Positions 2,741 through 49,606 are shown, counted from the first letter of the stretch. The stretch: 64,000 bases of DNA from Scenedesmus sp. PABB004 (GCA_014905635.1 JABVCE010000003.1:682001-746000), one strand, 5' to 3'. The notes: generated by a model from the sequence alone, not told the origin. Translations and numbers: made by a program.

Positions 2741-5700
2741 TCACGCCGCCGAGGCCTTGGCCTTTTTCCGCGCCTGCTTCCCGCTGCTGCCGCTGCCGCT
2801 GCCGCCGCCGGCCTCGCCGCCGGCCGCGCCGCCGGCCTCGCCCTCGGGCGGCACGCCGGTCTCGGGGCGCACGCGCTGGGGCTGGAAGACATAGACGTTG
2901 TAGATCACGTTGCGCCGTATCTGGGCCATGGTCTCCAGGAAGAGGTTGTAGCCCTCGAGCTTGAACTCGGTCAGCGGGTCCTTGCTCGCGTACCCGCGCA
3001 GCCCGACCGCCTGCTGCAGGAACTTGATCGCCTGCGCCGCGGCGGGCGCGTGTGCGGAGCGCGGCGGCGCGCGCGGGGGCGTGTGAGGGGGAGGGCGCGC
3101 GCCGCGCGGCGCGGCCGCGCAGGGCCGCGCGCCGCGGGCGGGGAGCGGCGCAGGCGCCGCGAGGGCCGCGCGCCTGCAGGTGCTCCTTCCAGAGGTTGTC
3201 CGTCTGGGTGAGGACGAAGAACTTCTGCGCCTCCTGCATGAGCCCCGGCTCGATGCTGTCCACCGCCGCCGCCTTCTGCTCGTACGCCGCGACCGCGAGG
3301 CTGCGCAGGTACGACCGCAGCCCCTCAAACGTGCCGCCGCCCTGGCTCGCCAGCTCCGCGCCTGCGCGCGGAGGTCGGCCGGCGGGCGCGGCCGTCGGGC
3401 GCGGCGCGGCGCCGGGCAGGGGGCGGGCCCGCCTCCGCGCGCGGGGGCCTGCGCGCCGCGCCGCGCCGCGCCGCGCCGCGCGGGCGCGGGGTGTGCCGCG
3501 CGCGCGCCTGTGAGTCCCTGCAGCAGGGGGCAGTACTGCACCATCTTGGCCGCGAGCGCGTCGAGCTTCCACTCCGACGGGTCGGCCGCGCGGTCGACGT
3601 TGGCCTGCGCGGCGGCGGGCGCGGGCGCAGGCGCGCGCGGCGGCGGGCGCGTCAGAACGGGCGGCGCGCCGTGTGCGAGGCCGATCAACAAACTCGCTTG
3701 CAACAACAACAGAGCGACGCGGCGAGGCAGCAGCAGCAGGCGCCTGCCGCGGCCGCGGGGCCGCACCGCACCTCGAGTATGTCGTCGCATGTCTTCTCCG
3801 CGTACTCCACCATGAGCGGCCCCAGGCCCTCGCTCAGCAGCGCGCGGCGGCGCTCCGCGTACACGCGGTCGCGCTGCGTGTTGACGACCTGGTCGTAGTC
3901 AAACAGGTTCCTGGGTTTAGCAGGGGGGGGGGGCAGGGTTTATAGGGGGGTGGGAGGGTGGGGAAGGCGGCTGATGCACATGCGCGCGCCGCACGCGCCG
4001 CACGCGCCGCACGCGGCCCCGCAGCCCCCTCCGCGCCGCGCGCACGCGGCCCCCCGCCGCCCGCCCCGCCCTCGGGTCCAGCGGCGCCCCCGGCGGCGGC
4101 CTCCTCCCTGCCCGGTGCCTCACTTGCGAATGTCATAGAAGTAGCTCTCCACGCGCTTCTGCGCCGTGTCGAGCGCGTCGCTGAGCATCGTGCTCTCCAT
4201 GGGCAGGTCCTCTACGCGGAAGGCGACCATCAGGTTCTTGATGCGGTCCCGCCAAACACCCTGGGAGAGGGGGGGGGGGGGGCGTGGGCGCGAGGCGAGG
4301 GAGCGCGCGCGTGTGGGCGAAGCGGTGGCGCGGGGCGCCGTCGCCCCGCGCGGCCCTGGCGCCCCGCCGCGCCGCGCTGCAAAACCGCGCCGAACCCTGG
4401 GCACCGCGCTGAGCCCTGAGCCCGCGCCCCGCGCTTAACCCCGCGCCGGCCCGCGCCTGAAGAGCGAGTCCTCGAGCGAGAGGAAGAAGCGCGTCGACCC
4501 GGGGTCGCCCTGCCGCCCGCTGCGGCCGCGCAGCTGGTTGTCAATGCGCCGCGACTCGTGGCGCTCCGTGCCGACGACGTGCAGCCCCCCGAGCGACACG
4601 ACGTCCGCCTTCTCCGCGTCCGTCACGGCCTTGAACTCGGCCAGCATCGCCTGGGGATTGGGAGGGTGTGGGTGTGGGTGTGGGGAGGGGGGTGCGTCGG
4701 GCAGGCGTGTCGTGTGGGCGCGGGCAGGCAAAGGGAGGGCATGATGGAGCGGCGGCGGCGGCAGTTGTTGCGGCAGCGGCAGCGGCGGCGGCGCCCCGCC
4801 CGCCCACCCCCAGGCCCGCACCTGGTAGACGCCGCGCAGCTGCAGCAGTACCTCGTCGCTCGTCGCGCCCTTCTCGCACGCCACGCTCAGCCGGTCCTCC
4901 GCGTCGAGCAGCGACAGCGACCGCCCGCCCCACGCCGACGACGCGGCCTTGACCGCGGCCCGCGCCGCGGCGAGCGTCGCGTCGCTGAGCGGGCACGGGA
5001 AGATGCTCGGGTCGGCGGCAAAGGAGCGCACGTTGGACCGCCCCGACCGCGTCTTGGCGTACGCGTCGTCCGCCTCCGTCTGCGCGCGCATCGCACGCGG
5101 CGGGCGGCGGCAGAGGAGCGCGGGCGCGGGCGTGGGTGCAAGGCGCCGGCGCCGGCGGCGGCGCGCGGTGCGTGCTGCGCGTGCTGCGTGCTGGGCGCGG
5201 CGCGCGGCGCGCCGCGCGCGCGCCTGCGCGACGACGTCCGGCAGCAGCAGCCCGCGCAGCGCGAGGCGTGCGAGGTAGTCAGGGTTGCCGCCGAGCAGGA
5301 TGTCTGTCCCCCGCCCCGCCATGTTGGTGCTGATCGTGACTGCGCCGCGCCGCCCGCTCTGCGCGACGATCTCGCTCTCGCGCTCCACGTTCTCGGGCTT
5401 GGCGTTCAGCACCTGCGGGCGTGCGTGTGTGTGTGTGTGGGGGGGGGGGGGGAGTGAGGAGCGAGGGGCAAGCGCGCGTGGCGCAGCGCACGGCAGCGCG
5501 GCGCCCGCCAGCGCGGCAGCGCCGGCGCCCCGCAGCCGCGCGACGGCGGCGGCGCAGCGCGTGCCCCTGCCCCCCCCCCCCCCCCCCCGCGCCCGCGCGC
5601 GCCTGCGCCGCCGCCGGCGCGCCTGGTGCTTGATGCCCGCCGCGTCGAGCATATCGCTGAGTAGCTCGCTCTTCTCGACGCTCGTCGTGCCGACCAGCAC

Positions 5701-7020
5701 GGGGCGGCCGGTCGCGTGGATGCGCTGAATCTCGGTCACCACCGCCGTCCACTTGTACTGCTCCAGCCTGGGGAGAGATGGCGGCGGCGGGGAGGGCAGG
5801 CCGCGGGCAGGGCGGCGGGGAGGGGAGAGAGAGGGGAGGGCGGGGAGAGTTGGGGCGGGGGAGGCGAGCGACGGTGCGGCGGCGAGCGCGGGCGCGTGGA
5901 GCGCGCGCGCGCGCGCGCGCGCGGCAGGCAACCAGCAGCGCCGCGCGCCTGAACACGACGTCGGGGTTGTCGGTGCGGCTGATGGCCCGGTTGGTCGGCA
6001 CGACCGCGACTGGGAGCTTGTAGATGCCGTCAAACTCGCTGACCTCGGTCGCGGCGGTGCCGGTCATGCCGGCGAGCTTGGGGAAGTTCCTGCGCGGCGC
6101 GCGCGGCGCGCGCGGGGGCGGCGGTGCCAGGGTTCAGGGTTCAGGGTTCAGGGCCCGGGGCTCAGGGGGGAGGGGGGGGGCAGCGTGGGGCGGGGCGCGC
6201 CTGCGCGCGGGGCGCCGACACAGCGCGTGCGGCCACTGCGAGCCCCGGGCGCGCGCGAGCACGACGCAAGAGCCCCCCCCCCCCACACACACACACACGC
6301 CGCGAGCCCCGGGCGCGGGTGCGGTCACTGCCGCGGGGCGCGGGGCGCGCGCCTGAAGAAGGCCTGGTATGAGACGCTGGCGAGGGTGATGGACTCGGCG
6401 TTGATGTCGAGCCCCTCCTTCGCCTCGACCGCCTGGTGCAGGCCGTCGCTCCAGCGCCGCCCCGGCATGGTGCGGCCCGTGAACTCGTCGACGATGATGA
6501 CCTGGTGGGGGTGGCCGGGCGGGCGGGGGCGCGGGCGTGTGGGCGTGCGGGTGTGGGGGTGTGTGCGTGTGCGTGTGGATGTGCGTCGCGGGCGCGGAGC
6601 GGGGGCAGAGGGAGCGACGCACTGAGAGGCGCGCGCGGCCCGCGCGGCGCGGCGGCCCCCGAAGGACGCCGCCGCGAGCGGCAGCCCGCCAGCCCGGCCG
6701 CGGCCGCGGCCGCGGCCGCGGCGGGGCGTCACACGCGCGCACCTCTCCCTTTTTGACGATGTAGTTGACGTCCTTCACAAAGAGCTCCTTGGCCTTGATG
6801 GCGTTGATGGTGTATGACGCCCACTGCGTGCGCGGGTCGTACAGGTCCGGCACCTGTGTGTGGCGCGGCGCGGGGCGCAGGGCGGTGCGGCGCGCGGGGT
6901 GGGGGGCGGGGGACAGGGAGGCAGCGGGGGGAGAGAGGGGGCGGGGCGGGGCGGGGAGAGGAGGAGGACGGGCAGGGACGGCGGGGGAGGCGGGGATCAG
7001 ACGGCGCGGCGCCGGCAGGC

Positions 7021-7051
<31 letters not shown>

Positions 7052-9092
7052 TGCCCTCGCCCAGCCCGGCGCGCTGCCGCCGCGCGCTGCCGCGCGCTGC
7101 CGCCGCCGCGCCGCGGCCGCGCCTGCAGCACGTCCTCGACCGCCTCGTAGCCGTCCTCGGTGAGCAGCACGTTGCGCTGCTTCTCGTCGACCGTGTAGTG
7201 CAGGTCGCGCGTCAGCGCGTCTGCGGCACACGCGCGGCAGGGCCAGCCGCGCGCGCGGCGGCGGCGGGGGCTCGCGCCCAACCCGCGGCGCCGCGCCGCG
7301 CCCCCGGCGCGCTGCGCCGCGCGCCCCTGGCGCCTCGCCGCGCTGCGTCGCGCCGCGGTGTCGTGCCGCCGCGCGTGTCGCGCCGCACCCGCGATCTTGG
7401 CTGCCTTGACGTACTTGTCGCTGGGCTTGTCGCTCGTGCCGCTGATGATGAGCGGCGTGCGCGCCTCATCAATGAGGATTGAGTCGACCTCGTCGATGAC
7501 GCAAAAGTTGAACGGACTCGCCGCGCGCAGCACGAGCTCGCCCGGCGACTGCCGGCCCGGGCGGGGGAGGGGGTGCGGTGGGGGCGGGAGCGGTGGCGGA
7601 GAGGTCGTGGGGAGGTGGGGAGATGAGGCGGGACGAGGGGCGCGCGGGCGGGGGCGCCGCGCGGCGGGCCCCTGCGCCGCAGCGTCGGCCCGTCCGCGGC
7701 GGCCCCCCGCCGCGGCGCGGCGCGGCGCGGCGGCTCACCCCCGCGAGGTTGTCGCGCAGGTAGTCAAAGCCCAGCTCGCTGTTGGTCACGTACGTGATGT
7801 CAGCGCCGTACGCGCCGCGCCGCGCCTCGGGCGTCATGTCGGCCTGGACCAGGCCCACCTGACCGCGCGGCACGCGCAGGCGGGCGCGGCGCACGCCAGG
7901 CGCGTCGGCGCGGGCAGCGCCGCGGTTGCTGGCACCGCCAGCTCCCGCCGCTCCTGCCGCCGCCGCTGCCAGCGGCTGTTGCTGGCGCCGCCGCCGCTGC
8001 GCGCCGCCGCCGCCGCTGCTCGCCGCACCTGCATGCCGAGGAAGCGCGGGACCTGGCCGACCCACTCGCTGTCGCGGCGGGCGAGGTAGTCGTTGACCGT
8101 CACCACGTGCACGCCCCGCCCCGACAGCGCGTTGAGGTAGCTCGGGAGCACCGCGACCAGCGTCTTGCCCTCGCCTGCGACGCGGACGCGGCGCGCGGAC
8201 CGCTCGGCGGCCGCCCGCCCGACCGGCCGCGACCCTGCCGCCGCCCTGCTGCCGCCCCGCGCGGCGCGCGGCCCGCGGCGCGCCGCCGCCGCAACGCTGC
8301 CGCCGGGCGGCTGCCTGGCTGCCTGGCCGCGGCGGCGCCGCTCGGCGGCGTGCCGCCTGGCCTCCTCGCCCCGTGGCCGCCGCACCGGTGCGCATCTCTG
8401 CGATCTGGCCCTCGTGCAGGATCATGCCGCCGATGAGCTGCACGTCAAACGGGCGCAGCCCCAGCACGCGGCGCGACGCCTCGCGCACGACCTGCGGTGC
8501 AGGCGGCGCGGCAGGCGGCGTCGGGCACGAATGCGCGGGCCGCGCGGCGCGCGCATGCATGCGGCGGCGGCGCCGGCAGCGGCGGCGCCGCTGGCCGGGG
8601 AGGGAGCGCCGCCGCCTCTCCCCCGCGAGCGCGCGGCCGCGGCGCGCGGCGCAGCGGCGGCGGCGGCGCGCGCACCGCAAACGCCTCGGGCAGCACCGCC
8701 TCCAGGCTCTCGCCCGCCGCGACGCGGGCCTTGAACTCGGCGGTCTTGCCGCGCAGCTGGTCGTCGCTGAGCGCCGCGATGGCGGGCTCCAGCGCGTTGA
8801 TGGCCTGCACGCGCGCTTCATACGTCTTGCGCGTCTTCTCCGACGGGTCCTGCTTGAAGAGCTTGTCGAAGAAGGCGCGCGGCGCCACGGGCCGCGCCCG
8901 GGAGGCGCGCGCGGGGCGCAGCGGCGCCCCCGCGGCGCCGCAGGCGCCCGCCAGGCTGCGCGATTGCTGGCCACCCGCCGCGCGCGGCCCGCAGGCGCGC
9001 GGCGGCGCGGCGTGGAGCGCCAGCACGGGGACAGCGCTGCATCGCGATTGGCCACGCGCCGCGCCGAGCGCGCGGCGCGCCGGGAGCAGCAT
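2741..9092 (-). CDS. secA: Plastid preprotein translocase SecA, 18 exons, with transit peptide; one apparent 1-nt frameshift near 4249
   Basis: Exons give [135 protein letters not shown]. Ala/Arg-rich N-terminus and the plastid/cyanobacterial-type insertion after GGNPDY. Confidence 0.97.
6128..6153 (+). repeat. (CAGGGTT)3 CAGGG telomere-like heptamer run in a SecA intron
   Basis: cagggttcagggttcagggttcaggg read directly; one base different from TTTAGGG. Confidence 0.75.
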
Positions 9093-17450: not shown

Positions 17451-18793
17451 CGCCGCGCGCGCGTGCCGCACCACGCAGACGGTGCAGGCGGCCGCGACGA
17501 GCTGCCAGACGGTGCGCGAGGCGGCCACGCAGGTGGCGCGGCCCGGGCTGGCGCTCGACGGCGGCGGCGACCGCCTGCTCACGCCGCGGCCGTACGTGAG
17601 CAGCGAGGTCGTGGGCGCGGCGCGGCGCGCCGCCGCGCTGACCATCCAGCGCTTCGGCCGCGGCTGGCTGGCGCGGCGCCGCGCGGCGGCGCTGCGGTGC
17701 ATCAAGGCCGAGCGCGACGCCTTCCTGGCGGGCGCGACGGCGGAGCGCGACGCGGCCGCGGCGGAGCAGCGCAGGTGCCTGCAGCGGCGGGGCGGCGCGG
17801 GGCGGGCGCGGGGCGGGGCGGCGCGCTCCCGGATGGCTGACGCGCGCGCGCGCGCGCGCCGCCGCGCCCTCTCTGGCCAGGCGCGAGGCCGAGCGGCGCA
17901 GCCGCCCGCTGCGCGCGTCCGACTTTGGGCTGCTGGCGGGCGAGCTGGAGGCGTGGCGGGTGCAGCAGACGGCGGCGATCCGGGCGGCCGCGGACGCGTC
18001 GGCGCGGGCGGGGCAGGCGTTTGACGTCGCGGCCGCGCTGCAGCTGCTGCTCGCCAAGGAGACGCGCCTGCTGCAGACGCTCGACCGCCTGCGGCTCAGC
18101 GCGCGCGCCGAGGGCCGCGCGCGCGCGGACGACCGCATGCTGGCCTCGCTGGCGGCGCCCAAGGCGTGGAGCCTCAGCAACGGCAGACAGGCGCGCGGCG
18201 TTGCCGTCGGCCGTGGCGCGCGGCGGCGGCGGGCGGGGCGCGCGGCGGGCTCCGCGCGCGCGCGGCGTTGCTGCCCCCCACCCCTCTCCCGACGCCGCCG
18301 CCGCGCCCGCGGCGCAGGTCATGGTGCACACGCCCGCGACGGTGCGCGCGGCGGAGCTGCAGCAGCTGCACCGCGGCCTCGGCCTGCCCGACCTGAGCCT
18401 GGACGCACGGCTGGACGTGCTGCTGCACGTCAAGTGGGCGGCCAAGGCGCACGACTGCGGGCTCAGCCGCGAGCTCGTGGGCCTCATTGACCGCGAGGCC
18501 GACCTCCTCAACAGGCGCGTGCGCGCGCGGCGTGCGCGGGGCGTGCGCTGGGCGGCGGGGCGCGGGGCGTGCGCGGCGCGGGGCCGGGGTGTGGCGGCGG
18601 CCGGCCGGCTGACGCGGCGCCCCGCGCGCGCCGCAGGGGCCGGCCGTCGAGCGCGCTCGCGGGGCTGCGGCGCCGCATCTCGGCGGCGTGGCTCGCGCTG
18701 TGCCGAGACCCCGGCTTCAACCCCGAGGCCGCCGCGCTCGCGCTCGCGCCGGGCGGCGGCGGCGAGGAATTTGAGTACGCCGACGGGCCCTGA
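16226..18793 (+). CDS. IQUB: IQ motif and ubiquitin-like domain protein (IQUB/FAP253-like, flagellar radial spoke), multi-exon
   Basis: KPFLGGFRHKASGAVFHHAAAQT, repeated TQT/QT motifs, DRLLTPRPY, IQ motif IQRFGRGWLARRR, RPLRASDFGLL, LLAKETRLLQTLDRL, VHTPATVRAAEL, RLDVLLHVKW, ELVGLIDREADLLNR, PGFNPEAA. Confidence 0.85.
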
Positions 18794-19456: not shown

Positions 19457-21414
19457 ATGGTGAGGGGCTTGGCCAAGCACCTGCGCCCGCTGCTGGCGAC
19501 GGCGGCGGGCGGCAGCTTTGGCGCGGGCGGCGCGGCGGCGGCGGCGTATGCCGTGCCCGCGATCGCGGTGCCCAAGTCGGGCGGCCTGTTCGGCGGCAGC
19601 AAGCGCATCACCACGCCGCTCAGCGAGGAGCTGCCCAACGTGAACAAGCCCACCCACACGCCCGCCAAGGCGCCGGAGCTGCAGGCACGCGCCGCGCGGC
19701 GGGCGACGCGGCGGCGCAGACGCGGCGCGGCCCGCCCCGGCCAGGCGGCGGCGCGGGCGCGCCGCGGGCGGCGCGCGTGACACGCGCCCGCCGCCGCCGC
19801 CGCCACCGCCCGCGCGCCGCAGGTGGGCACGCTCGCGGGCGGCGTCAAGGCGGCGGCGCTCGACGCGGCGGGCCCAACACGTGCGTCGCGGTGTTTGTGG
19901 GCGGCGGGTCGTCGGTCGAGACGCCCGAGACCGCGGGCGCGAGCAAGCTGCTCGAGTACATGGCCTTCACCGCCACACACAACAGGTGCCGCACGCGCAC
20001 GTGCGCGGGGCGAGCAGCTCCGGCGGCGGCGCGGGCCGCCGGGCGCGCGGGCCGCCGAGCGCGCCGCGCCGCCGCCGCTGCCGCCCGCCGCCGGCCGGCA
20101 GGACGTCGTTCCGGCTCGCGCGCGAGCTTGAGAAGTACGGCGCGGCGAGCAGCTGCGTCGCGGGGCGCGAGCACATCGCGTACGTGGTGGAGGGCACGCG
20201 CCTGCAGGCGGCGGAGGTGACCGAGATCCTCATGGACGCGGTGCTCAACCAGAAGTGAGCGCGCGCCTGCTCAGCGCCGCGAGCGGGCCGCTGGCGGCGC
20301 AAGCCCGCGGGCGCGCCGCGCGCCGCGCGCCGCGCGTCTCACGCGCCCCGCGCCGCCGCGCCCAGGCTGGCCGACTGGGAGGTCGCTGACATGCTGGAGA
20401 AGGTGCAGGACGACCTCGACTCGGCGTACGCGAGCCCCGCGATCCTCGCGCACGAGCTGCTGCACAAGGCGGCGTTTGAGGGCGGCCTCTCCAACAGCCT
20501 GCTGCCCGACCCCGCCTCGCTCGGCGGCCTCGGCGGCGACGCGCTGCGCGGCTTCATCGCGGAGCACTTTGTCGCGGGCAACATCGCGATCACGGGCGCG
20601 GGCATCAGCCTCGCCCAGCTGCAGCAGTTCGCCGGCCCGCTCGTGGCCGGGCTCGGCGCGGCGCCGGGGTCGGCGGCCAAGTCGACCTACACCGGCGGCT
20701 ACCTCACCGCGCTCGCGCCCGGCGCGGAGCCGACGCTCGCGGTCGCGTACGAGGCCAAGGGCGGGCTGGGCGACATCAAGGCCACCGCGACCGCGGCGGT
20801 CGTCAAGGCGCTGCTCGCGGCGCCGAGCCGGCAGGTGCTGCCCTACGCGGCCAAGGGCGTCGCGCCGCCGCTCACGTCGGTCACGCCCGTCGTGCAGGTG
20901 CGCGCGGGGCGCGCTGGGCGTGGCGCGCGCGGGGGCCCGCCGCACGCGCCGCGCGCGCGCGCGCCGCCCACACCCCGCCCGCGCGCCCTCGCTCCCCGCG
21001 CGCGCGCGCGCCCAGATGTACAAGACCACCGGCGTCATCGGCCTGCTCGGCACCACGACCGGCGGCAGCGCGGCGGCCGCGGCCGCGGCCGAGGCGCTCG
21101 GCGCGCGGCTCAAGGCGCTCGCGTCGGGCGGCGGCGCGGGCGACGCCGCGCTGTCGGCGGCCAAGCAGACCGCGCTCGGGAACTACCAGTCGGCGATCTC
21201 CGCCAAGCCGGGCGTGGTGCAGGACATGGGCCTGCAGCTGCTCGCGCGCGGCACGTTCAGCGCGCAGGAGTATGCGGCCGCGGTGGCCGGCCTCGGCGCG
21301 GCTGACGTGACCAAGTACGTGGCCGAGCTGCTCAAGGGCCAGCCCACGGTCGTCGCGGTCGGCTCGCTGGCGGACCTGCCCAAGTACAGCACCGTCGCGG
21401 GCCGCCTCGCGTGA
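19457..21414 (+). CDS. QCR1: Cytochrome bc1 core protein / alpha-MPP-like (peptidase M16 fold), multi-exon; apparent 1-nt frameshift near 19872
   Basis: Mitochondrial presequence, VAVFVGGGSSVETPETAGASKLLEYMAF, RLARELEKYGA...GREHIAY, HELLHKAAFEGGLSNSL, PTVVAVGSLADLPKY. No HxxEH and no Gly-rich alpha-MPP loop, so a non-catalytic core subunit; symbol follows Chlamydomonas usage. Confidence 0.85.
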
Positions 21415-29987: not shown

Positions 29988-32229
29988 TCACTCGCCGCTG
30001 CGCCGGCCCGTGGCGGTCTCCCACACCACGGTGCTGCTCGCGTCCAAAAGCAGCGCGTTGCCGTCGTCCTGCACGATCAGGCGGTGCGGGCTGCGCCCGC
30101 GCCCGGCCGTGCGCGACTGCCACAGCAGCTTGCCGTCCCGGTCGAGCACTGCGGGCGGCGGGCGGGCGGGCGGCGGCTCAGCAACGCCGCCGGCGGTCAG
30201 GCGTGTGTGTGTGACCGAGGTGGGCAGACCGACGCGCCCCGGTCGCCACGCACCGGCGAGGTTGCCGCTCTCAGACAGCACGAGCTTCAGCGGCCGCGCC
30301 TCGGACGCGCCGGCCGTGCCGCTCGCCCAGATGCGCACGGGCGTGGGCCCGATCTCGCGGAGGACCAGGTTGGCGTTCAGCTGCAGGCACAGCTTCGCCT
30401 GCGCGCCAGCGCGCGCCGGTCAAAACCGCGCGTGGCGCCGCGGCGCAGGCAGCGCCGGCTGCGGCCGGCAGCTCACCGCGCCGCCCCGCACCTGGCGCTG
30501 CGGCGAGAACAGGCACTGCCCGCTGGGCATCTCGTCGCCGGTCGCGAGCATCTGCGGCGGCGCGTCGCCCGGCGCCGGCGAGGGGCTGGGCTGCGGCGCG
30601 GCGCTGCTCGGCGGCGAGCCCTGCGTCTCGTCCGACGGCGGCCCCGACGGCGGCAGGGCGGGCGGCACGACCGGCAGCGTGTCCTCTGGCAGGGGCTCAA
30701 ACACGTTGGCCCGGAACTCGCCGGGCCAGTTGCCTGCGCCGGACGCGGCGTGCCGCCGGCCGGCAGAGGTCAGGGGGGCGGCGCGGCCCGCGCGCTGCCC
30801 GCGCCTGCTGCTGCTGCTGGGCCGCTGGCACGGCGCCGCGGGCGCACCCTGGGGCGAGTACCGGCAGACCACCAGCACGCCCTGGTCCCAGGACGGCTTC
30901 AGCCCGGTGAGGCACGTCGCAAAGGCGCAGCCGATCTCGCGCGTGTCGCCCCACACCAGCTGCGCGCGGCGGCCGCGGCGGCGGCGCGGTGGGGCCCCCG
31001 AGGCGCGCGCAGCGCTGCCCGCTGGCTGCCTCCCTCTCGCTCTCAAGCGCGCACGCGCGTGCACGCGCCCCGCGCAGCGCGCGCCTGTGTGAAGTGGCCC
31101 GTCGTGGGCGTGAAGCCGGGGCGCTTGAAGTCGTACGTGTCGCCCTCGCTGTACCTGATGCGCCGCCGCGGCGGCGGCGCGGCGCGGCCGACGCGGTCGG
31201 CGGCCGCGGCCCCCGCGATCGGCGGCCGCGGCCCCACGAGCAGTGTGCGCACCAGATGTCCACCGCGGCGGCCATGTACAGTCCCAACTCGTCCGTCACG
31301 AAGTTTGCGGCCATTAGGTTTTCGCCGTATCTGACCGACCGCGGCGGCGCGGCGCGGCGCGGCCACCACGGTGGGCGGCTCCGGCGAGGCAGGGGCGCGG
31401 CGGCCGCGGCCCGGCGCGGCCCCGCGCGGCCGGCGGCGCGGCGCGGCGCTCACCGGTAGTTGTTTGGGTCGTGCTGGTACTCGCACTTGGCCGCGTACTT
31501 GGCAGACGACTCGCTCAGTGCCGTGCTCCAGCGCAGCGGCCCGACCTGGCGCGCGCGCGCGCGTCGGCGTCGGGCGTGTCGGCGCGCGTCGGCGCGCCGC
31601 GGCGGGCGGCGCGCGCGCGGCCCCGCATGCGCGCGCGCGCGGCCCTCGGGGGCAGCGGAGCGCACCTGGTGCAGCGCGCGGTAGCGGTTGTGCAGCTCCA
31701 GCACGGATGCGATGACGGGGTCAGCCAGGCCGCCCGGCAGCGCCGCGCCGCCGCCAGCGCCGGCGCCGTTGCCGCGCGCCGCCGCCGCGCGGCTGAGCTT
31801 GAGCGCGGCCTCGCTCGTGGCGCGTGCCTTGGCGCTGCCGTTTGCGGCACTCGGCGCGCCGGCCCCGAGCGCGCTGTAGCTGTCGGCGGCGTAGCTGTCG
31901 GCGCCGTAGCCAGCGCTGGCGGCCGCGCCGCGGCTGGCGTTGCCGGCCGCCGGCGGCGGCGGGGCCGGCGCCGACGTCGCGTTGGCAGCAGCGGCCGTGG
32001 CGTTGCCGCCGCGCGGCGCCCCGGGCGCCCGGGCGCGCCGCAGCAGCGTCTCCTCCTGGAGCAGCATCGAGTGGCTGTGGTGCTTCTGGTGGTCCAGCTG
32101 CTCCCTGAGCAGCGCCGTCATCTGGGTCGAGTCCGGGTCGTGCCCGCCGTCGGCGCGGCCGCCCGCCGCCGGGCCGCAAAGCGCCGCAGCGACCACCAGC
32201 GCGGCGAGCAACCAGCGATTTCGCGGCAT
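29988..32229 (-). CDS. Secreted CAP (SCP/PR-1) domain protein with Pro-rich linker and C-terminal bulb-type lectin domain
   Basis: Signal peptide; LELHNRYRALHQ|VGPLRWS, YGENL, TGHFTQ|LVW..TREIGCA, VVCRYSPQ|GN; then LCLQLNANLVL, IWASGT, LVLSESGNL, LLWQS, LIVQDDGNALL, VVWET. Confidence 0.88.
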
Positions 32230-34538: not shown

Positions 34539-35290
34539 TCAGGCCTTGCCACCCGTCGCGGCGGCCACCTCCTCCGCCAGGTTGCTCTGCTTCTTCTCCA
34601 CGCCCTCGCCCAGCACAAAGCGGTGGAAGCGGCGCACCTGGCGCGCGCGGGGGGCAGGGCGCGCGCGGGAGCGTGAGGCGTGCGACGCGCTGGGCCCCGT
34701 TCCACGGCGGCTGCCCCGTCGGGCTCAGCGCTCGCACCTGGATGTTCTCGCCGCACGCCGCGACCGCCTCCTTGACCGCCTCACCCACCGTCTTGGCGTT
34801 GTCGAGCAGGTAGGGCTGCTCCAGCAGCACGCGCTCCTGCAAGCGCAGAAGGGCGGGCAGGCGCGGCGCGTGAGCACGGCGCGGCGCAGGGGGCGCGCAC
34901 GGGCCGCGGCGCGGCGGCGCGGCGCGCGCACCTGCACCAGCTTCTTGACGCGGCCCTCGGCGATCTTGGCGCGGATGGCCTCGGGCTTGGAGGCGAGGTC
35001 CTCGCGGCCCATCTCGATCTCCTTCTCCTGCTCCCACACCTCGGCGGGGATCTCGTCCGCGCTCACGTACTCGACGCCCGGGCTGGCAGCGATCTGGCGC
35101 GGCGGGCGCGGCGGCGGCGCACGGGGCGTCGTGCGGAGGCCGCGCTCGCACGCGCGTGTGCGGCGCCGGCCGCGCGTGGCGGCGCCCGGCCGCACGCGCG
35201 CAGCAGCGGCCGCGTGCACGCAGCAGCACCACGCGCACCTGCATCGCGACCGTGTTGGCGAGGCGGCCGAAGACCTCGCCCGCGGCGACA

Positions 35291-35325
<35 letters not shown>

Positions 35326-36451
35326 CAGGCGGCTGCCGGGGTGGATGTAGGCGAGCACCGCGCCCTCGGCCGCCAGCCGGCCCGCCTTCTTGTCCGCCTG
35401 CGCGAGGCCCTTCTTGCGCAGCCACTCGCTCGCCGCCTCGACATCGCCGCCGTTCTCGGCGAGAGCCTTTTTGCAGTCCATCATGCCCGCGCCGCTCTTG
35501 TCGCGCAGCTGCTTCACCAGCCCCGCGCTGATCGCGACCGCGGGCTTGGCCGCCTCCTGCGCGGGCGATGGCGCGCGGGACGCCGTGCGTGGGTCTCCGC
35601 CGCGCGCCGCGCCGCACGCGTGCCGCCCGGGCGCCGCCCGCCCCACGCGCGCGCCGCGCGCGCGCGCCGCACCGGCTTGGGCGCCGCCTCCTCCTTCTTG
35701 GGCGCCTCCTTCTTGGGCGCCTCGTCGGCCTTGGCCTTGGCCTGCGTCTGCTGCGCCACCTCGGCCGCAAAGTCGGCGCTGCGCTTCTCGAGGCCCTCGC
35801 CGAGGTTGAACTTGACAAAGCGGCGCACCTGCGGGGCAGAGCAGCAGCGAGGGCGGGCGGCAAGGTGGCGGAAGCGGGGCGGGCGGCGGCGCCGTCAGCA
35901 GCCGCCGCGGCAGCACGGCGCGCGGCGCGCCGCCCCCGCCGCCCCGGCGCGCGGGGCTGCAGCGCCGCGGCGGCGCGCCGCGGCGTTGCGCGCCTGGATG
36001 TTCTCGCCCGTCGCGGCGATGGTCTCCTTGATGATCTCGCCGACCGTCTTGTTGTTGTCGCGCAGCGCCGGCTGCTCCAGCAGCGCAAAGGCGCGCTTGA
36101 TCTTCTCCAGCCGCCCCTCAACAATCTGCGCGGCGCGGCGCCGCGGCGGCGCGGCGGGTCGGCCGCCGGCACGGCACGCGCAGCACGCGCGGGCGGCGCG
36201 CCGGCGCGCGCGCTGGGGCGCGGGGGCCCGCCGCGGCGCCTCGGCACACACGCGCACACGCGCGCGCGCGCACCTTGGCGCGCACTGCCTCGGGCTTGGC
36301 CTTGAGGTCCTCCTTGCCCATCTCGACCTCGCGCTCGCGCGCGAGCAGGTCGGCCGGCATGTCCTCCACGCTCACGCACACGACCTCGCTGCTCGCGACG
36401 ACCATCGCGAGCTCGCCCGCGAGGCCCGTGAACGCGTCGCCCGCGGCGACA

Positions 36452-36486
<35 letters not shown>

Positions 36487-39400
36487 CAGGCGGCTGCCGG
36501 GGTGGATGTAGCGCACGATCGCGCCCTCCGCCGCGACGCGGCCCGCCTTCTTGTCCGCGCCCGACAGGCCCTTCTGGCGCAGCCACTGCGCGGCGCGGCG
36601 CGGCGCGGCGCGCGGCGCGGCGTTTCGCGGCGCTCGGGCCCGGGCGACCAACGCAGCCGCGGCAGGCGACCGCCGCTGCCGCTGCTGCCGCTGCTGCTGC
36701 TGCAGCTGCTGCCGCTGCTGCCGCTGCTGCCGCTGCTGCTGCCGCCATCGCTGCTGCCGCCAGCTGCCACTGCTGCTGCCGCCACTTCCCCTGCCGCTGC
36801 CGCCAGGCTGCTCCACCGCCGCCAGCTGCAGCTCCAGCAGCCGCCGCTGCCGCCACCCGCTGCAGGCGAGCCCCTGGCGCCGTGGGGCTCACGCGTCGTT
36901 GTTGCGTCGCTCGCTTACACCGCTGCAGCTGCCGCTGCCCCGCAATGCTGCGGGCCGGGGGCGTGCGCAGCGCAGCGCAGCACACGAGCAGCGCGTGCGT
37001 CATACCTCCACAGCCTTGTCGGCGTCGCCGCCGTTCTCGGCGAGAGCCTTTTTGCAGTCCATCATGCCCGCGCCCGTCTTCTTGCGCAGCGCCGACACGG
37101 CCGCAGCGCTGATGCCGGCTGCGCGGCGGCAGCGGCAGGCGACAGCGGCGGGTCAGCGCTCGCGGGGGACGACGCCCCCGGGGCGCGCGCGGCGCACGGG
37201 GGCGGCGCGCGCGAGCGCGCGCGCGCCCACGCCGTGCGCCGCGACGGGATGCGGTGTGGGGAGGGAGGCACGCAGGCAAGTCACGTGGGTGTCAAAACCG
37301 GTGCCAACAGCACAGTGCAGCCCCGCCCCTAGCTCGTCAGAAACAGATGCCTCTAGAGAGAGAGGGAGCGCGCCAGCCCAGCCCAGCCCGCCCGCGCCGC
37401 CCGCCTCGCGCGCGGGAGCTCCGCGGCCCGCCGCCCCGCCCCGCCTCACGCACCCGACACGGCCGCCGCCGCGACGACGGGGTTGCGGCGCGCGAGGGCG
37501 GGCACCTCCGCCTCGTCCGCGTCCTCGGCCATGAGGCTGGCCACGATCGAGTCGACCGCGCGCGGGTCGTAGCCGCCGGTGCTGATCGCGGCCGCCTCCT
37601 CCACGAGCTCGGCGTCCAGCTCCGCCTGGGGCGCGCGCGCGGCGGCGCGGGGTGAGCGGCTGCGGCGCGCACGCGCGGGCGCGGCGGCGCGGCGACGCCC
37701 GCAGCGGCGGCGCCGCCCCACGCCGCGCAGCGCGCACCTCGTCGGCGCCCTCGCGCCGCGCCACGCTCCAGTCGCCGCCCTCCTCGGCCTGCGTGATCTT
37801 GTAGCCCATGCGCTTCAGCAGGCTGCGGGGGACGTAGCTGGTGTCGTTGGTGGCGAGGCCGATGAGCTCGTCCTCGTCGTCGTCGTCCGCCGTCTCGCTG
37901 AACCGCTCCAGCAGCGTCGCCGACAGCGCCGCCGTCGCGTCGACGCCCTGCGCGGCGCGCGGCGCGCAGCGCGGGCGTGGGCGCGGGAAGTGCGGGGGCA
38001 CGCGGGCGGCGGGCGCGGCGGCGGCCCCAGCAGCGCGCCCCAGCGGCGCGCCGCAGCGGCGCACCACGTCGCGGTCGGGCAGGCGCAGGCCGAGCATGCC
38101 GGGCGACACGAGGCGGCCGGCGCGGCCCGCGCCGCTCGCGCGCACGCTGAACACCTCCGCGCGCAGGTCCTCGGGCACGACCGACACCACCTCGGCGCCC
38201 TCGTTGTCGCCGTCGTCCACCGCGGCCACGGCGCCCTGGCGCGCGGGTGACGGCGCGGTGAGCGCGGGGCGGCGGCGCCCGCGGGCGCGCGCGCGCGGCC
38301 GCGCCGACGCCCGGCCGCCCAGCGGCCCGCGCGCGGCGCCGCCGGCGCACCTCCGCGGGGTCGAGCGCCTCCAGCAGCGCGTCGCCGTTCTCCGCCTCGT
38401 CGTCGTCGCCGGCCGCCTCCTCCGCGGCGGCCCAGATGCCCTGGATGACCTGAGGGAGGGGGGGGGGGGGCAGGAGCAGGAGCGGGAGCGGGGCGGGGCA
38501 GGAGCAGGGCGGGCGCGCGGGAGTGAGGGGCCCAACCCGTGCGCCGCGCCGCGCGCGCCAGCAGCGCGTGCGACGCCGCAGCGCAGCAGCGGCGGCGCCG
38601 CTGCTGCGCTGCGCTGCGCGGCGCCGAGCGCTGCTGCGCGCTGCTGAGCCCCAAAAACCCAACACCGCGCACCTGGGCGTCGGTGACGTCGTCGAGCTCC
38701 ATGCCCTCCAGCATCTCCGCCACAGCCGCGAGCTCGTCGTCGGCCTCGCTCGGCAGGCGCTGCGTGAGCAGCGGCGTGCCCGCCTCGACGTCAAACACAA
38801 AGCAGCTGATGGCGTCGTTGACCTGCAGCACGGCGCGCGAGACAGCGGGCGTGGCGCCGTCAGGCGTGAGGCGTGAGGCATCACGCGTCAGGGGCGGCAC
38901 TGGGGGCTGGGGCGGCGCTGCCAGCGTGGCAGCGGCGGTGGCGGCAGCAGCGGGTGGTGGTGGTGGTGGTGCTGCATGCCTTGTAGTAGGCGGTGGGGTC
39001 GATGGCCTCCACCTCGGCATACTCCTCGCCCTCGTCGGCGCCCTCCGCGTCCACGAGCGCCGCGGGCGCGAGCAGCTCGCTCACGTGGATCATGCCCTGC
39101 AACGCGCGGCGCGGCGCGGCGATGCGGGGCGGGGCGTGAGGCCGCCGGCCCGGCGCGGCGACGGCGGCGGCGGCGCGCGGGGTGCAGCGACGCAGTCGCT
39201 GCGGGCGTATGCGGGCGCGGCGGCGCGGGCGCGCACCTCGACGGCGGTGCCGTCCTCGAGCGTGTACGACACTGTCACGCCCGCCTTGTCGACGGCGGCC
39301 ACGGTGCCGCGCACGATGTCCTCGCACGCGATCGCAATCTCCCGCGCCTCCTCCGCGCCCACCTCGTCCACAAACTCGAGGTCGGCCGGGTCGATGTCGC

Positions 39401-40776
39401 CTGCACGCGCGGACCCCAAGGGCGGTGGCGGCGGTGGCGGGTGGTCGCGGGCGGCGTGGGCGGTGGGCCCAGAGGTGCGCCGCGGGCGGGCCCGCCCGCG
39501 CCCCGCGGCTGCCGGCGCCCGCGGGCGCTCGCCGCACCCGCGACGTCGTCCTCCTCGTCCTCCACCACAAAGGTGAGGCCGTCCAGCTCCGCCACGTTGG
39601 GGTCGGCCACCACCTCGTCCTCCTCCGCGTCTGCGCGAGGCGCGCGCGGGGCCGCGGCAGCGGTGGGCGGCTGCCGCGCGGCACGCGGCGCGGCGCCCCG
39701 CGCCGCCGCCGCCGCAGCCGGCGCGCACGCGTGCCGCGCCCGCCGCGGCCGCCCGCCCCCGCGCGCGGCGACGCACCCTCCTCGTCGTCGTCCTGCACGC
39801 GGCGGCCGCCGCCGCCGCCGACGCGGGGGGCGCCGAGGCCCTTGCGCGTGAGCGCGAGGCGCTTGCCCGCGGGGTCGACGCTGAGCACCTTGACCTTGAC
39901 CGTCTCGCCGACCTTGATGACGTCGGCCACGTTCTTCACAAAGCCCTCCTGCAAGCGGGGAGGCGCGGCGGGCGCGGCGGCGGGCGGGCGGCGGTGAGCG
40001 CGCGCTGCTCTGGCCGCGCGCGCCGGCGCTCGCGCCGCCGGCCCGGCCTGGCGCTAATGCTGGCCTGGCGCTGCTGCCGGCCTGGCGCTGCTGCCGTGCT
40101 GGCGCTGCCGCTGGCCCCGGGCGCTGCCGCCCCCGGACACGCGCGCGCCCGCCGCCGGCCAGCCCAGCCGCCGGCAGCAGCGGCCGGCGCGACGCGGCGC
40201 GCACCGCCAGCTGCGAGACGTGGATGAGGCCCTGCGACTCGGCACCGATGTCCACGAAGGCGCCAAAGGTCTGCACGCTCGTCTGCGGGGCGCCGCCGGC
40301 GTGGGGCGGGGGTGAGCGGCCACAATTGCAGGCGCCCCGCCCCCGGCCGCCCGGCCGCGCAGCTCACCACGCGGCCCTCCACCACGGTGCCGGGCTCGAT
40401 GGTGGACAGCTTGCGCCCCTGGGCCTTGGGCGCGCGCGCCGCAGGCGCGGGCGCGGGCGCCTCCGACTCGGCCGCTGCCACGGCCACGAGCGCGCGGCGG
40501 GCATTCGGCACCCGCCGCCTCGCGACGCGCCTGCGGCGCCGGGCCCGCATCGGTGAGCGCCCAGCGCGCCCGCGCGGCGCCGCAGGGGCGCCGGCAGACG
40601 CCCACCACCCACCTGGCAGCAGCGCTGGGCGCCGCACCGACCCCGGCGCGGGCCGCCTTGGCCTGCGGGGCGCCGCGGCGATGGTGTGAGGTCGCGGGCC
40701 GCAAATGAGGCCACCCAGCGCGCCCGCAGGGCCCGCCCCGCACCTGCGCCGAGGCCACCGGCGTGCGGCCGAGCAT
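34539..40776 (-). CDS. PETs: Plastid polyprotein PSRP-7/EF-Ts: two S1 domains plus two EF-Ts domains, multi-exon
   Basis: Transit peptide [18 protein letters not shown]...; S1 ([38 protein letters not shown]); two copies of [61 protein letters not shown]. Confidence 0.95.
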
Positions 40777-46596: not shown

Positions 46597-48221
46597 ATGG
46601 CCTACCAACCCCCGCCGGCCGCGGGCGCGGGCTGGCTGGGGCCGCCGCCCGCCGGCGCGCCGCCGTACGCGCAGCAGCAGCAGTGGCAGCAGCAGCAGTG
46701 GCAGGCACCACCGCAGCAGCAGTGGCAGGCGCCGCCGCAGCAGCAGTGGCAGGCACCACCGCAGCAGTGGCAGGCGCCGCCGCAGCAGCAGTGGCAGGCG
46801 CCGCCGCAGCCGTACGCGCCGGCGCAGCAACCGTATGCACAGCCGTGCGCGGCGCCGCCGCAGCAGCCGCCCGCTCCGCGCGGCGGGCGCAAGCGCGCGC
46901 TGCTGGTGGGCTGCGCGTACCCGGGCACGTCGCAAGCGCTGAACGGCTGCCTCAACGACGTGCAGTGCATCGAGTACTGCCTCAAGCACAGGCACGAGCC
47001 TGAACCGCACCGACGCGCGGCGCCCCCGCGGCGGCGGGCCGAGCGCGCCCCGCGCGCCGCGCCGCGCCGCGCCGGTCGCGCGCGCAGGTTTGGCTTCCCG
47101 CCCGAGTGCATCGTGGTGCTGCGCGACGACAGCGCCAGCCCCGACCACACGTCGACGCGCGCCAATATCCTGCGCGGCATCGCCTGGCTCGTGGCCGACC
47201 AGCGGCCCGGCGACTCGCTCTTCTTCCACTTCAGCGGCCACGGCGCCCAGCAGGCGGACACAGACGGCGACGAGCTCGACGGGTGAACCGCCCGCGCGGC
47301 GCCGCGCCCGCGCGCCGTGACCACCCGCGCCGCGCGCCGCGCGCCGCGCGCCGCGCGCCGCGCGCCGCGCGCCGCGCCCGCGTGGCGCGCGCGGCCGCGC
47401 GCTCACGCGCGCCGCCCGCGCCGCGCAGGGCGGACGAGACGATCCTGCCCACCGACTTCAGGCGGGCCGGGGCGATCGTGGACGACGAGCTCAACGCCCT
47501 GCTGGTGCGCCCGCTGGCCCCGGGCGTCACGCTGCACGCGCTCGTCGACGCCTGCCACTCCGGCACGGCTCTCGACTTGCCGTACCGCGCCAAGCTGGTG
47601 CCGGGGCAGCCGGGGCAGCTGCAGTGGAAGCTGAAGTCGCGGCACGTCAAGGGGACGTCTGGCGGGACGGCGTTCCAGATCGGGGCGTGCCGCGACGCGC
47701 AGGTGCGCGCGCCGCGCCGGCGTTGCGGCGCGCCGCGCGCCCGGGCTGCAGCGCCTGCAGCAAGGGGCGGGTCGCGCGGCGGGCGCGCAGGTCGCCGCCG
47801 ACACCAACGCCCTGAGCGGGGACGCCCACACCGGCGCGGCCACGTTTGCCTTCATCGATGCGGTGGAGAGGTTCGGGACGGCGCAGAGCTACGCCAGGTG
47901 CGCGCGCCCCGGCGCCGCCCGCTGACGACGCCCGCGCCCGCTCACCTGGCTGCTGTCCCTCGCCGCCCCAGCCTGCTCGCGCACATGATGGAGGTGCTGG
48001 CGTCGCGTGCCGGCGGCGGCGGCGGTCCGCCGGCGGGGCTGCCGGCGGGGCTCGGCAGCGTCGCAGGCAAGCTCGCGTCGCTCGGCGGCGGCCTCGGCGG
48101 CCTCGCCGGCGCCGCAGCGGGGCTGGTGGGGAGCTTCCTGGGCCCGCTGGGCGGCGCCCAGATGCCCGTCATCGCCTGCGACAAGCCGGTCGACCTGGCG
48201 GCGACGCGGCTCGCGATATGA
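46597..48221 (+). CDS. Type I metacaspase with Pro/Gln-rich prodomain, 5 exons
   Basis: [29 protein letters not shown] (catalytic His), [29 protein letters not shown] (catalytic Cys), [19 protein letters not shown]. Confidence 0.95.
46672..46809 (+). repeat. Coding tandem repeat of 21-24 nt units (QQQWQAPP)
   Basis: cagcag(cag)tggcaggc(a/g)cc(a/g)ccg occurs four times after a QQQQWQ partial unit. Confidence 0.85.

Positions 48222-48470: not shown

Positions 48471-49606
<1,136 letters not shown>

Follow-up and report, generated by a model that had tools for sequence, protein, structure and literature searches.

The 64 kb stretch of DNA analysed here (the window) is nuclear DNA from a chlorophycean alga close to Scenedesmaceae. 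It carries a chloroplast-type secA gene, a PETs gene (S1 domains and two EF-Ts units), and genes for an M16-peptidase-like protein, a Rab5-like GTPase and UTP7/BING4 (Table 1). Its base composition is extreme. GC content runs from 75 to 83% and is put at 79% for the alga. GC3 reaches 0.97 and introns have about 0.87 GC; in their interiors GCG accounts for 0.91 of GCG plus GTG. A first-pass annotation had inferred intense GC pressure on this DNA, which these figures bear out. It had also claimed that introns with GC in place of GT at the donor site are very frequent here and always follow an exonic AG.

Splice junctions of the secA gene

The sequence and coordinates at secA are as first described. 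The SecA matches carry the domains PF07517, PF07516, PF21090 and PF01043, and this domain set, with full-length collinearity to plant and algal SECA1, identifies the gene as chloroplast-type. Exons were placed by tblastn with 11 SecA proteins of green algae and then by junction enumeration. For every junction we listed all in-frame, stop-free combinations of GT-AG, GC-AG and AT-AC sites close to the exon ends that tblastn gave, and scored each by its mean local BLOSUM62 score against the 11 proteins. Residues 1-970 of the spliced model align with the closest homologue, P0022, at 829 of 970 identical positions (85%), and the alignment is gapless at 16 of the 17 junctions. This was the highest identity obtained, and no protein derived from transcripts of the same species turned up.

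At seven introns (6, 8, 9, 10, 11, 16 and 17) the top-scoring donor is unambiguously GC. The GT alternatives at GC sites score 14 to 87 units lower and delete or insert conserved residues. The narrowest lead of GC over GT among the GC introns is that of intron 11. At nine junctions the top-scoring donor is GT, leading the best GC by 6 to 72 units. The remaining case, intron 13, depends on the assembly. Joining donor 4456 to acceptor 4261 gives the product LFR/VFGG, exactly as in P0022 and in L001, a contig from a lower-GC relative, and is followed by a one-base frame slip at a GGG run at about 4248-4250. With the letters as assembled, the best in-frame donor is also GC, at 4446, but conserved residues are then replaced. 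For the donor at 4456 to fit, one G must be missing from the G run in the assembly.

The first-pass annotation placed GC donors at 8 of the 17 secA introns, every one reading CAG/GCGCG. That count stands, seven introns without ambiguity and the eighth if the slip is an assembly error. Its exon-end rule for the gene stands as well: eight of the ten exons ending in CAG have a GC donor, and all five that do not end in AG have GT. The two remaining exons, which end in GAG, likewise have GT. The sequence CAGGCGCG occurs 12 times on the secA sense strand, eight times exactly at a homology-defined exon end; at about 4e-4 per position, such placement is impossible by chance.

Table 1. Positions in the window of the genes, GC-AG introns and apparent deletions described in the text. 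In donor sequences a slash marks the exon end; scores are given for the GC donor against its GT alternative.
Feature	Position	Strand	Details
Chloroplast-type secA gene, nuclear	2741..9092	minus	18 exons, 17 introns (9 GT-AG, 8 GC-AG)
secA start and stop codons	ATG 9092-9090; stop 2743-2741	minus	
secA intron 6	6854..7122	minus	GC-AG, CAG/GCGCGG; 223.8 vs best GT 198.7
secA intron 8	6090..6352	minus	GC-AG, CAG/GCGCGC; 180.9 vs best GT 165.5
secA intron 9	5768..5948	minus	GC-AG, CAG/GCGCGC; 193.9 vs best GT 175.7
secA intron 10	5413..5622	minus	GC-AG, CAG/GCGCGC; 193.5 vs best GT 157.6
secA intron 11	5080..5223	minus	GC-AG, CAG/GCGCGC; 149.6 vs best GT 135.9
secA intron 13	4261..4456	minus	GC-AG, CAG/GCGCGG; valid only if exon 14 slip is an assembly error
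secA intron 16	3362..3507	minus	GC-AG, CAG/GCGCGC; 150.3 vs best GT 89.7
secA intron 17	3032..3173	minus	GC-AG, CAG/GCGCGC; 228.5 vs best GT 142.0
Apparent one-base deletion, G run, secA exon 14	4243..4250	minus	frame slip between VFGG and DRIKNLM
IQUB-domain gene, probable GC-AG intron	18515..18631	plus	CAG/GCGCGT; acceptor approximate
M16-peptidase-like gene	19457-21408	plus	4 introns: 1 GC-AG, 3 GT-AG
M16-like gene, GC-AG intron	19685..19822	plus	CAG/GCACGC; 145 vs 79, single reference P0191
Second apparent one-base deletion, M16-like exon	19868..19876	plus	GGG/CCC runs
CAP-domain gene, probable GC-AG intron	30960..31084	minus	CAG/GCGCGC; coding-potential drop
PETs gene	34566..40282	minus	17 introns scored, 2 GC-AG
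PETs GC-AG intron	35829..35993	minus	CAG/GCGCGC; 194.7 vs best GT 108.1
PETs GC-AG intron	38823..38979	minus	AAG/GCATGC; 70.4 vs best GT 45.1
Metacaspase gene, probable GC-AG intron	46992..47087	plus	CAG/GCACGA; weak support
Rab5-like GTPase gene	48471-49606	plus	4 introns: 1 GC-AG, 3 GT-AG
Rab5-like GC-AG intron	48934..49078	plus	CAG/GCGCGC; splits YY/R/GA codon
UTP7/BING4 GC-AG intron	54310..54437	plus	CAG/GCGCGG; 174.2 vs best GT 121.2, 8 references

Frequency and context of GC donors

How common are such donors outside secA? The PETs gene was said to share the pattern, and it does, with two GC donors rather than many. Several of its N-terminal junctions have margins below 5. At one poorly conserved junction a GC donor without a preceding AG (CGA/GC, 39528) scores 70.1 against 68.8 for GT at 39537; we counted this junction as GT on motif grounds. 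A similar one in UTP7 (GCG/GC at 55655, 101.5 against 91.9 for GT at 55622, again poorly conserved) was left out of the tally. The M16-like gene is modelled on a single reference, since the homologue search gave one protein, and a Viterbi parse also puts a frameshift in it at 19876. The assembly contains one-base indels, at least two of them, so its base accuracy is imperfect. The Rab5-like junctions were read by hand, without scoring; at the intron beginning at 48934, matches to the Pfam Ras profile join at profile position 70.

The other sites listed in the first-pass annotation fared unevenly. Those at 19685, 48934 and 54310 hold by homology or Pfam coordinates. The site at 18515 holds by Pfam coordinates: the upstream piece ends at position 93 of the IQUB profile, and the next ORF piece begins at 93. 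Recurrence in the CAP gene is probable, with the piece downstream of the intron beginning at CAP profile position 90 (E=0.019). The metacaspase site at 46992 is weakly supported, and a drop in coding potential together with the ab initio parse suggests those at 18191, 27906 and 50483. Pfam had no match for 50-residue pieces taken beside 27906, 50483 and 57689.

Our tally covers the 46 introns of the five homology-checked genes: secA, PETs, M16-like, Rab5-like and UTP7/BING4. Thirteen are GC-AG (28%, CI 16-44%): 8 of 17 in secA, 2 of 17 in PETs and one of four in each of the three others. At all 13 junctions both donor and acceptor lie where the conserved protein requires them, at 4456 on condition of the assembly error. 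If PETs 39528 and UTP7 55655 were both real, the tally would be 15 of 47, and the AG rule would hold for 13 of 15. The claim of a very high frequency is overstated for the set, in which secA represents the high end. Even so, 13 of 46 is far above the level of about 1.2% reported for plants across 121 genomes (Pucker and Brockington 2018, PMC6310983).

Use of GC donors is uneven, with 8 of 17 introns in secA against 5 of 29 elsewhere (p=0.044). Uniform mutation pressure does not explain this difference between genes.

The context rule is clear in the homology-checked set. Exonic AG precedes 13 of 13 GC donors (12 CAG, 1 AAG) and 16 of 33 GT donors (Fisher p=0.0007), as the first-pass annotation had it. 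After CAG, GC and GT donors split 12 to 9; after GAG the split is 0 to 6 (p=0.02). The frequency of C at +2 is thus 0.28 overall, 0.57 after CAG, and 0 both after GAG and after exons not ending in AG. Set against the 0.91 background of intron interiors, the overall value indicates that T is still selected at +2, far less strongly after CAG. The proposal that T has turned to C wherever positions -2 and -1 compensate goes too far: 16 of 29 exons ending in AG keep GT, among them 9 of 21 CAG exons, and none of the six GAG exons has GC.

In other respects the two classes share one grammar. Donors of both have G or A at +3, C at +4, G at +5 and C or G at +6; the acceptor is CAG in 46 of 46 introns; and median lengths are similar (157 for GC, 146 for GT). 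No donor among the 46 matches the U12-like motif /[AG]TATCCTT. Scored against the nine positions of the canonical U1-complementary consensus, 12 GC donors match at 6 and one at 5, while GT donors match at 5-7; GC donors thus do as well as the weaker of the GT donors. The stronger consensus at GC donors is the exonic AG; on the intron side, +3 to +6 are no stronger than in GT introns. GC-AG introns in general depend on the other donor positions being close to consensus. In plants and animals the usual compensating consensus is AAG/GCAAGT, whereas here +3 to +6 read GCGC, so that compensation lies on the exon side alone.

Across the window CAGGCGCG is not enriched (51 copies, with 55.7 expected from shuffles), so donor numbers cannot be estimated by motif counting. 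A scan for drops in coding potential recovers 45 of 46 known donors, but it also flags 23 further sites within known genes and 25 on their antisense strands and is too noisy for a GC fraction. The Viterbi parse, which combines codon usage with splice sites and was trained on the same 46 introns, recovers 45 of them. Beyond the five genes it predicts 40 GT introns and 13 GC introns preceded by AG, or about 25% GC. It also predicts 18 GC introns there without a preceding AG. Of these 18, 14 have a length divisible by 3, and many are on the wrong strand or within long ORFs of low complexity; we treat them as artefacts, although a few may be real. As far as predicted junctions can confirm it, GC donors at about a quarter of introns, placed after AG exon ends, are real.

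Origin of the GC donors

The likely explanation is that GC pressure has turned the +2 T into C in ordinary U2-type introns of a sphaeroplealean green alga, wherever it did so at sites at which pairing of an exonic (C)AG compensates. Strong GC-biased mutation or gene conversion would drive weakly constrained T to C. A C at donor +2 would persist only after exons ending in (C)AG, where three base pairs between the exon and the 5' end of U1 snRNA would offset the lost pair at +2. Donor positions, context rule and composition are direct results; the role of U1 pairing and the T to C direction are inferred, and splicing at the GC donors themselves is presumed from protein homology. Because GT introns share the rest of the site (G at +1, GCG at +3 to +5, a CAG acceptor), one spliceosome could read both, and on the best reading neither a special U1 nor a relaxed spliceosome, both suggested in the first-pass annotation, is needed.

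Might the machinery instead be altered, reading GC directly as a second canonical donor through a variant U1 that pairs with C at +2 (and at +4) or through changed U1C, Prp8 or U6 contacts? C at +4 in both classes mismatches canonical U1, and GC reaches 57% after CAG. A GTGCG-type donor is also atypical in Ostreococcus, where divergent snRNAs were raised as a possibility (PMC2483917). Yet a U1 pairing with C at +2 would not need CAG, and AG precedes every GC donor, CAG all but one; moreover, T is strongly kept at +2 against the C-rich background. An Rfam scan of the window gave no matches of any kind, and hence no snRNA that could speak for a variant U1. We think this account quite unlikely. 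That the GC donors are artefacts, with a nearby GT used and the protein divergent or with T-to-C consensus errors in the assembly, is very unlikely. Two one-base homopolymer deletions do occur in about 4.4 kb of checked coding sequence, and GC dinucleotides are so common that one nearly always sits near an exon end. These indels are homopolymer length errors, however, not substitutions; the same motif with T (CAG/GTGCG) is read correctly at nine other donors; and GC donors have been confirmed by RT-PCR in Emiliania huxleyi (PMC4028052). The cost of the GT alternatives in score and conserved residues, and the full 8-mer CAG/GCGCG exactly at eight homology-defined exon ends, point the same way.

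Two further accounts concern the introns as a class. Introner copies that bring their own GCGCG end and duplicate a CAG target would explain both donor and exonic CAG, and intron ends do look palindromic (GCGCGC ... GCGCGCAG) with CAG on both sides. When the 46 introns are compared all against all by blastn, however, the matches are confined to low-complexity GC repeats; they fall on both strands and join GT and GC introns alike. End complementarity is the same within introns (6.65 of 14) as between them (6.54, sd 1.98), GC introns scoring 6.69, and lengths vary from 128 to 269. Neither near-identical copies nor terminal inverted repeats were found in this one 64-kb window, and we reject the idea as most improbable. 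Assignment to the minor spliceosome as U12-type introns would suit donors that are not GT. It is scarcely credible here: none of the 46 donors matches [AG]TATCC, donors are otherwise the same as those of GT introns, and neither U11/U12 snRNA genes in the window nor branch-site TCCTTAAC motifs in the introns were seen.

Other GC-rich algae and the meaning of the finding

Frequent GC-AG introns are already known from other GC-rich algae, and the green-algal case adds to them. In the haptophyte E. huxleyi (65% GC), GC donors make up 56% of 241 curated junctions and 61% of Cufflinks junctions (Feldmesser et al. 2014, BMC Genomics 15:148, PMC4028052). Nine were confirmed by RT-PCR, acceptors are AG, and the authors attribute the donors to genome GC content. 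Like our alga, E. huxleyi is GC-rich, with GC donors as a major class and AG acceptors; unlike it, it belongs to an unrelated lineage and has the higher share of GC donors (about 28% here, at 79% GC), so the level must depend on more than GC content. We saw no mention in that paper of a need for exonic AG. The pelagophytes Aureococcus anophagefferens and Pelagomonas calceolata have 14-17% GC donors, against 0.32% in a lower-GC relative (bioRxiv 10.1101/2024.10.30.620910); these are stramenopiles, the figures come from gene predictions, and the frequency is lower than in the window. GC-AG introns of plants and animals, U2-type with AG acceptors as here, are some 20-fold rarer.

Among green algae, GC-rich Ostreococcus lucimarinus has the atypical donor consensus GTGCGTG (Irimia and Roy 2008, PLoS Genet 4:e1000148, PMC2483917). 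The window's G[T/C]GCG[C/G] resembles it, with C at +4. Ostreococcus lucimarinus differs in being intron-poor, with a rigid branch site, and we saw no GC donors reported for it in that paper. Our literature searches brought up no green alga with frequent GC-AG introns, and the word 'splice' is absent from the main text of a 38-genome Scenedesmaceae paper (PMC13315243). The lower-GC relative's contig L001 (2160 bp, 64% GC, chlorophycean secA, from a metagenome scan) has five GT-AG introns out of five; only intron 12, with GT in both, occupies a position common to L001 and the window, so the contig is uninformative on the GC sites.

At a GC-donor share of about 28%, only some 1 in 5 five-intron genes (0.72^5) would have none. 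Most of this alga's multi-exon genes would therefore come out wrong from gene finders and aligners limited to GT, and one-base assembly indels add to the problem. There is a precedent in the first E. huxleyi gene models, where default models under-called GC donors at 15% (PMC4028052).

A stronger claim would be that GC is a second regular donor in this green-algal lineage, serving more than half of CAG exons through a changed U1 5' end, U1C, Prp8 or U6 and not through mere tolerance. We regard this as unlikely. If true, Viridiplantae would have their first example of the kind, and the alga would serve as a natural system in which to study the reading of +2; selection on splicing efficiency or regulation might then lie behind the contrast between secA (47%) and PETs (12%), an abundant translation factor. 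On the preferred reading, that of ordinary U2-type introns under GC pressure, the link of extreme GC content with GC-AG introns extends to green algae. Donors identical except at +2 then offer a contrast within one genome, and the share of GC after CAG (57%), GAG (0%) and non-AG ends (0%) would gauge the value of exonic U1 pairing.

Splice junctions of secA

We located the secA exons by tblastn with algal SecA queries, which gave 18 collinear blocks separated by 17 gaps. All in-frame, stop-free GT-AG, GC-AG and AT-AC pairs lying no more than about 90 nt from a block end were enumerated, with the peptide from each pair scored on 11 reference proteins. At introns 1-5, 7, 12, 14 and 15 a GT donor outscored every GC donor, the margin being 6 to 72; at introns 6, 8, 9, 10, 11, 16 and 17 a GC donor outscored every GT donor, the margin being 14 to 87. 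Each of these seven GC donors reads CAG/GCGCG (the slash marks the splice junction) and lies exactly where the first-pass annotation had placed it. The spliced model shares 829/970 identities with the closest SecA homologue, and gaps occur in two places only, junction 13 (three positions) and the C-terminal tail (ten).

At junction 13, donor 4456 (CAG/GCGCGG) and acceptor 4261 yield LFR/VFGG, identical in that homologue and in L001, a related secA on a 64% GC metagenome contig. A one-base frame slip follows in exon 14, in a GGG run (4243-4250, minus strand) within well-conserved sequence; we take it to mean that the assembly lacks one base of the homopolymer. The earlier count of 8 GC introns among 17 stands, seven by scoring and the eighth (4456) on condition that this reading is right. 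So does the proposed context rule: 8 of the 10 exons ending in CAG precede GC, and all five without a final AG precede GT, as do the two ending in GAG.

Could these matches be accidental? The 8-mer CAGGCGCG occurs 51 times in the window and 55.7 times in dinucleotide shuffles, so the motif by itself is uninformative. Eight copies, however, fall exactly on the base where protein homology closes a secA exon, and no GT-AG intron can be obtained by sliding any of these eight junctions. This coincidence is not chance.

All five introns of L001, which is chlorophycean, are GT-AG, and only one shares its position with an intron of the window's secA. L001 lacks an intron at the position of intron 13 and has additional ones inside what are exons 12 and 13 in the window; in secA, intron positions thus turn over quickly among Chlorophyceae. 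Intron 8 of the window's secA contains a perfect 7-nt tandem repeat (6128-6153; 3.7 copies of CAGGGTT on the plus strand, AACCCTG on the gene strand), the plant-type telomere unit with one letter changed. Intron 10 holds a 19-base C homopolymer (5570-5588; G19 on the gene strand), and further long G/C runs lie in introns.

Donor context in five genes

Four more genes were checked by homology. For PETs, 17 junctions were scored against 9 references; two had a clear GC donor, and GT ranked first at 14, several of them in the acidic N-terminal half by less than 5 points. One near tie (GC at 39528 after CGA, 70.1; GT at 39537, CGG/GTGCGG, 68.8) was tallied as GT because of the complete GTGCGG motif at 39537. 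The M16-like gene, with one reference, has one GC and three GT introns. UTP7, with 8 references, gave the same tally, and so did the Rab5-like gene, which was read by hand with a check on the Pfam Ras coordinates; its GC donor falls within the codon for R in YYRGA. A fifth UTP7 junction, in an unconserved tail, was left out (GCG/GC at 55655, nominally best at 101.5; AAG/GT at 55622, 91.9).

Genes of the window and homology-checked GC donors outside secA
Feature	Position	Strand	Donor	Basis or score
secA	9092-2741	minus
PETs, S1 + EF-Ts polyprotein	about 40.3-34.5 kb	minus
PETs GC donor	38979		AAG/GCATGC	70.4 vs 45.1 best GT
PETs GC donor	35993		CAG/GCGCGC	194.7 vs 108.1 best GT
M16-like GC donor	19685		CAG/GCACGC	145 vs 79
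Rab5-like GC donor	48934			hand reading
UTP7 GC donor	54310			174.2 vs 121.2
RPC4	window			Pfam/protein searches
Anthrone-oxygenase-like	window			Pfam/protein searches
IQUB-domain	window			Pfam/protein searches
M16-peptidase-like	window			Pfam/protein searches
Aldo/keto reductase	window			Pfam/protein searches
CAP-domain	window			Pfam/protein searches
Histidine phosphatase	window			Pfam/protein searches
Metallo-beta-lactamase-fold	window			Pfam/protein searches
Metacaspase	window			Pfam/protein searches
Rab5-like GTPase	window			Pfam/protein searches
HMA-domain	window			Pfam/protein searches
Prefoldin subunit	window			Pfam/protein searches
UTP7/BING4	window			Pfam/protein searches
Bestrophin	window			Pfam/protein searches

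These homology-based models confirm, on comparative and statistical evidence, that predicted GC-AG introns are frequent in the window and, in the verified set, always follow an exonic AG. They number 13 of 46 (28%, exact 95% interval 16-44%), or 15 of 47 if both doubtful junctions, in PETs and UTP7, are non-AG GC donors. The share is 8/17 in secA versus 5/29 in the other four genes (p=0.044, uncorrected).

Composition of verified donors (consensus CAG/GTRAGT)
Position	GC donors	GT donors
Exon -3 to -1	CAG 12, AAG 1	CAG 9, GAG 6, AAG 1, no AG end 17
+3	G 11, A 2	G 32/33
+4	C 12, T 1	C 28/33
+5	G 13	G 32/33
+6	C 10, G 3	C or G 29/33
Consensus matches	6/9 (12 cases), 5/9 (1 case)	5 to 7 of 9

Because the consensus matches are similar, a CAG/GC donor is on paper no weaker than the GCG/GT or CCG/GT donors, which are evidently functional in these genes. 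Position +4 is C in 40 of the 46 introns; the GTGCG-type donor described for Ostreococcus (PMC2483917) shares this atypical C. All 46 acceptors are CAG, with an exonic G next in 37, and over the final 30 bases of the intron both classes have about 60% C. No U12-type donor occurs among the 46.

Predictions and gene content across the window

A codon log-odds model was trained on the verified exons (GC1 0.71, GC2 0.46, GC3 0.97). A simple coding-drop scan found 45 of the 46 known donors but was noisy. A Viterbi parse that combined codon scoring with matrices for donors and acceptors and allowed for frameshifts as a separate state found 45 of the 46 known introns, which were also its training set. 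Outside the five genes, where both flanking exons had to score at least 8, it predicted 40 GT introns, 13 GC introns after AG and 18 GC introns not after AG. Of these 18, 14 have lengths divisible by three and resemble low-complexity coding that was skipped, or calls on the wrong strand. With the 18 excluded, GC accounts for 13 of 53 (25%), agreeing with the homology figure. Among further GC donors in the first-pass annotation, 18515 and, weakly, 46992 are backed by the parse and by the coordinates of Pfam pieces, as is site 31084 in the CAP gene; 18191, 27906 and 50483 have coding potential as their one basis. The predicted donors at 27906 and 33751 follow GAG between strongly coding flanks; if they are real, C at -3 would be favoured but not needed.

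A Pfam scan of the full set of 380 stop-to-stop ORFs that reach 100 residues, with protein searches, shows the window to be gene-dense and eukaryotic; its G+C is 75-83% in every 2-kb bin. The nearest proteins to SecA (83-85% identity), PETs and the M16-like product belong to Scenedesmaceae (Tetradesmus obliquus, Enallax costatus, Hariotina reticulata, Flechtneria rotunda). This places the DNA in a chlorophycean green alga close to the family but distinct from these four species. The three genes lie within 38 kb (2741-40282), and their nearest T. obliquus counterparts (locus tags 000425, 000252 and 000278) all sit on a single contig of 8.85 Mb, a hint of conserved linkage. The M16-like gene also has a one-base slip in a G/C homopolymer run (19868-19876, plus strand, about 19873) within an otherwise well-conserved exon. 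Both slips are most likely consensus errors of long-read assembly, and genes here may appear broken though intact. Near the window's end, very long stop-free frames (58902-63995, plus, 1698 residues; 60075-63998, minus, 1308 residues) have no Pfam match; the parse places a plus-strand gene in the former, with several in-frame 'introns' resembling skipped low-complexity coding.

Origin and significance of the GC donors

What would produce GC donors only after AG? Intron-interior positions in a G_G context are 91% C, whereas at donor +2 C is found in 28% of all introns, in 57% of those that follow CAG and in 0% of those that follow a non-AG exon. Since these values fall far below the interior background, T at +2 appears to be kept by selection everywhere, though less strongly after CAG, where the odds differ by a factor of very roughly e^4. 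GC-directed mutation or gene-conversion pressure would turn +2 T into C, and U1 pairing would filter the changes, with exonic CAG compensating. Such filtered pressure predicts the +2 pattern without any new machinery. Reading of GC donors through a variant U1 or through changed protein contacts would be an improbable alternative; the strict exonic AG requirement speaks against U1 reading +2 C directly. No component of the splicing machinery lies in the window. The idea of a mobile introner that ends in GCGCG and duplicates a CAG target was also tested, and the 46 introns gave it no support. GC pressure with exonic compensation, as first proposed, survives; its claim that conversion occurs wherever exon positions -2/-1 compensate does not.

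That GC-AG introns can be frequent in GC-rich algae is already published. GC donors make up 56% of 241 curated and 61% of Cufflinks junctions in E. huxleyi, where RT-PCR confirmed such donors and default gene models under-called them (PMC4028052); GC-AG introns reach 14-17% in Aureococcus and Pelagomonas, ascribed to GC content (bioRxiv 10.1101/2024.10.30.620910), and average 1.2% in plants (PMC6310983). Our literature search turned up no account of a green alga in which GC-AG introns are frequent, and the word 'splice' is absent from the main text of a recent 38-genome Scenedesmaceae paper. The abundance of GC-AG introns carries practical weight for annotation and is of moderate biological interest.
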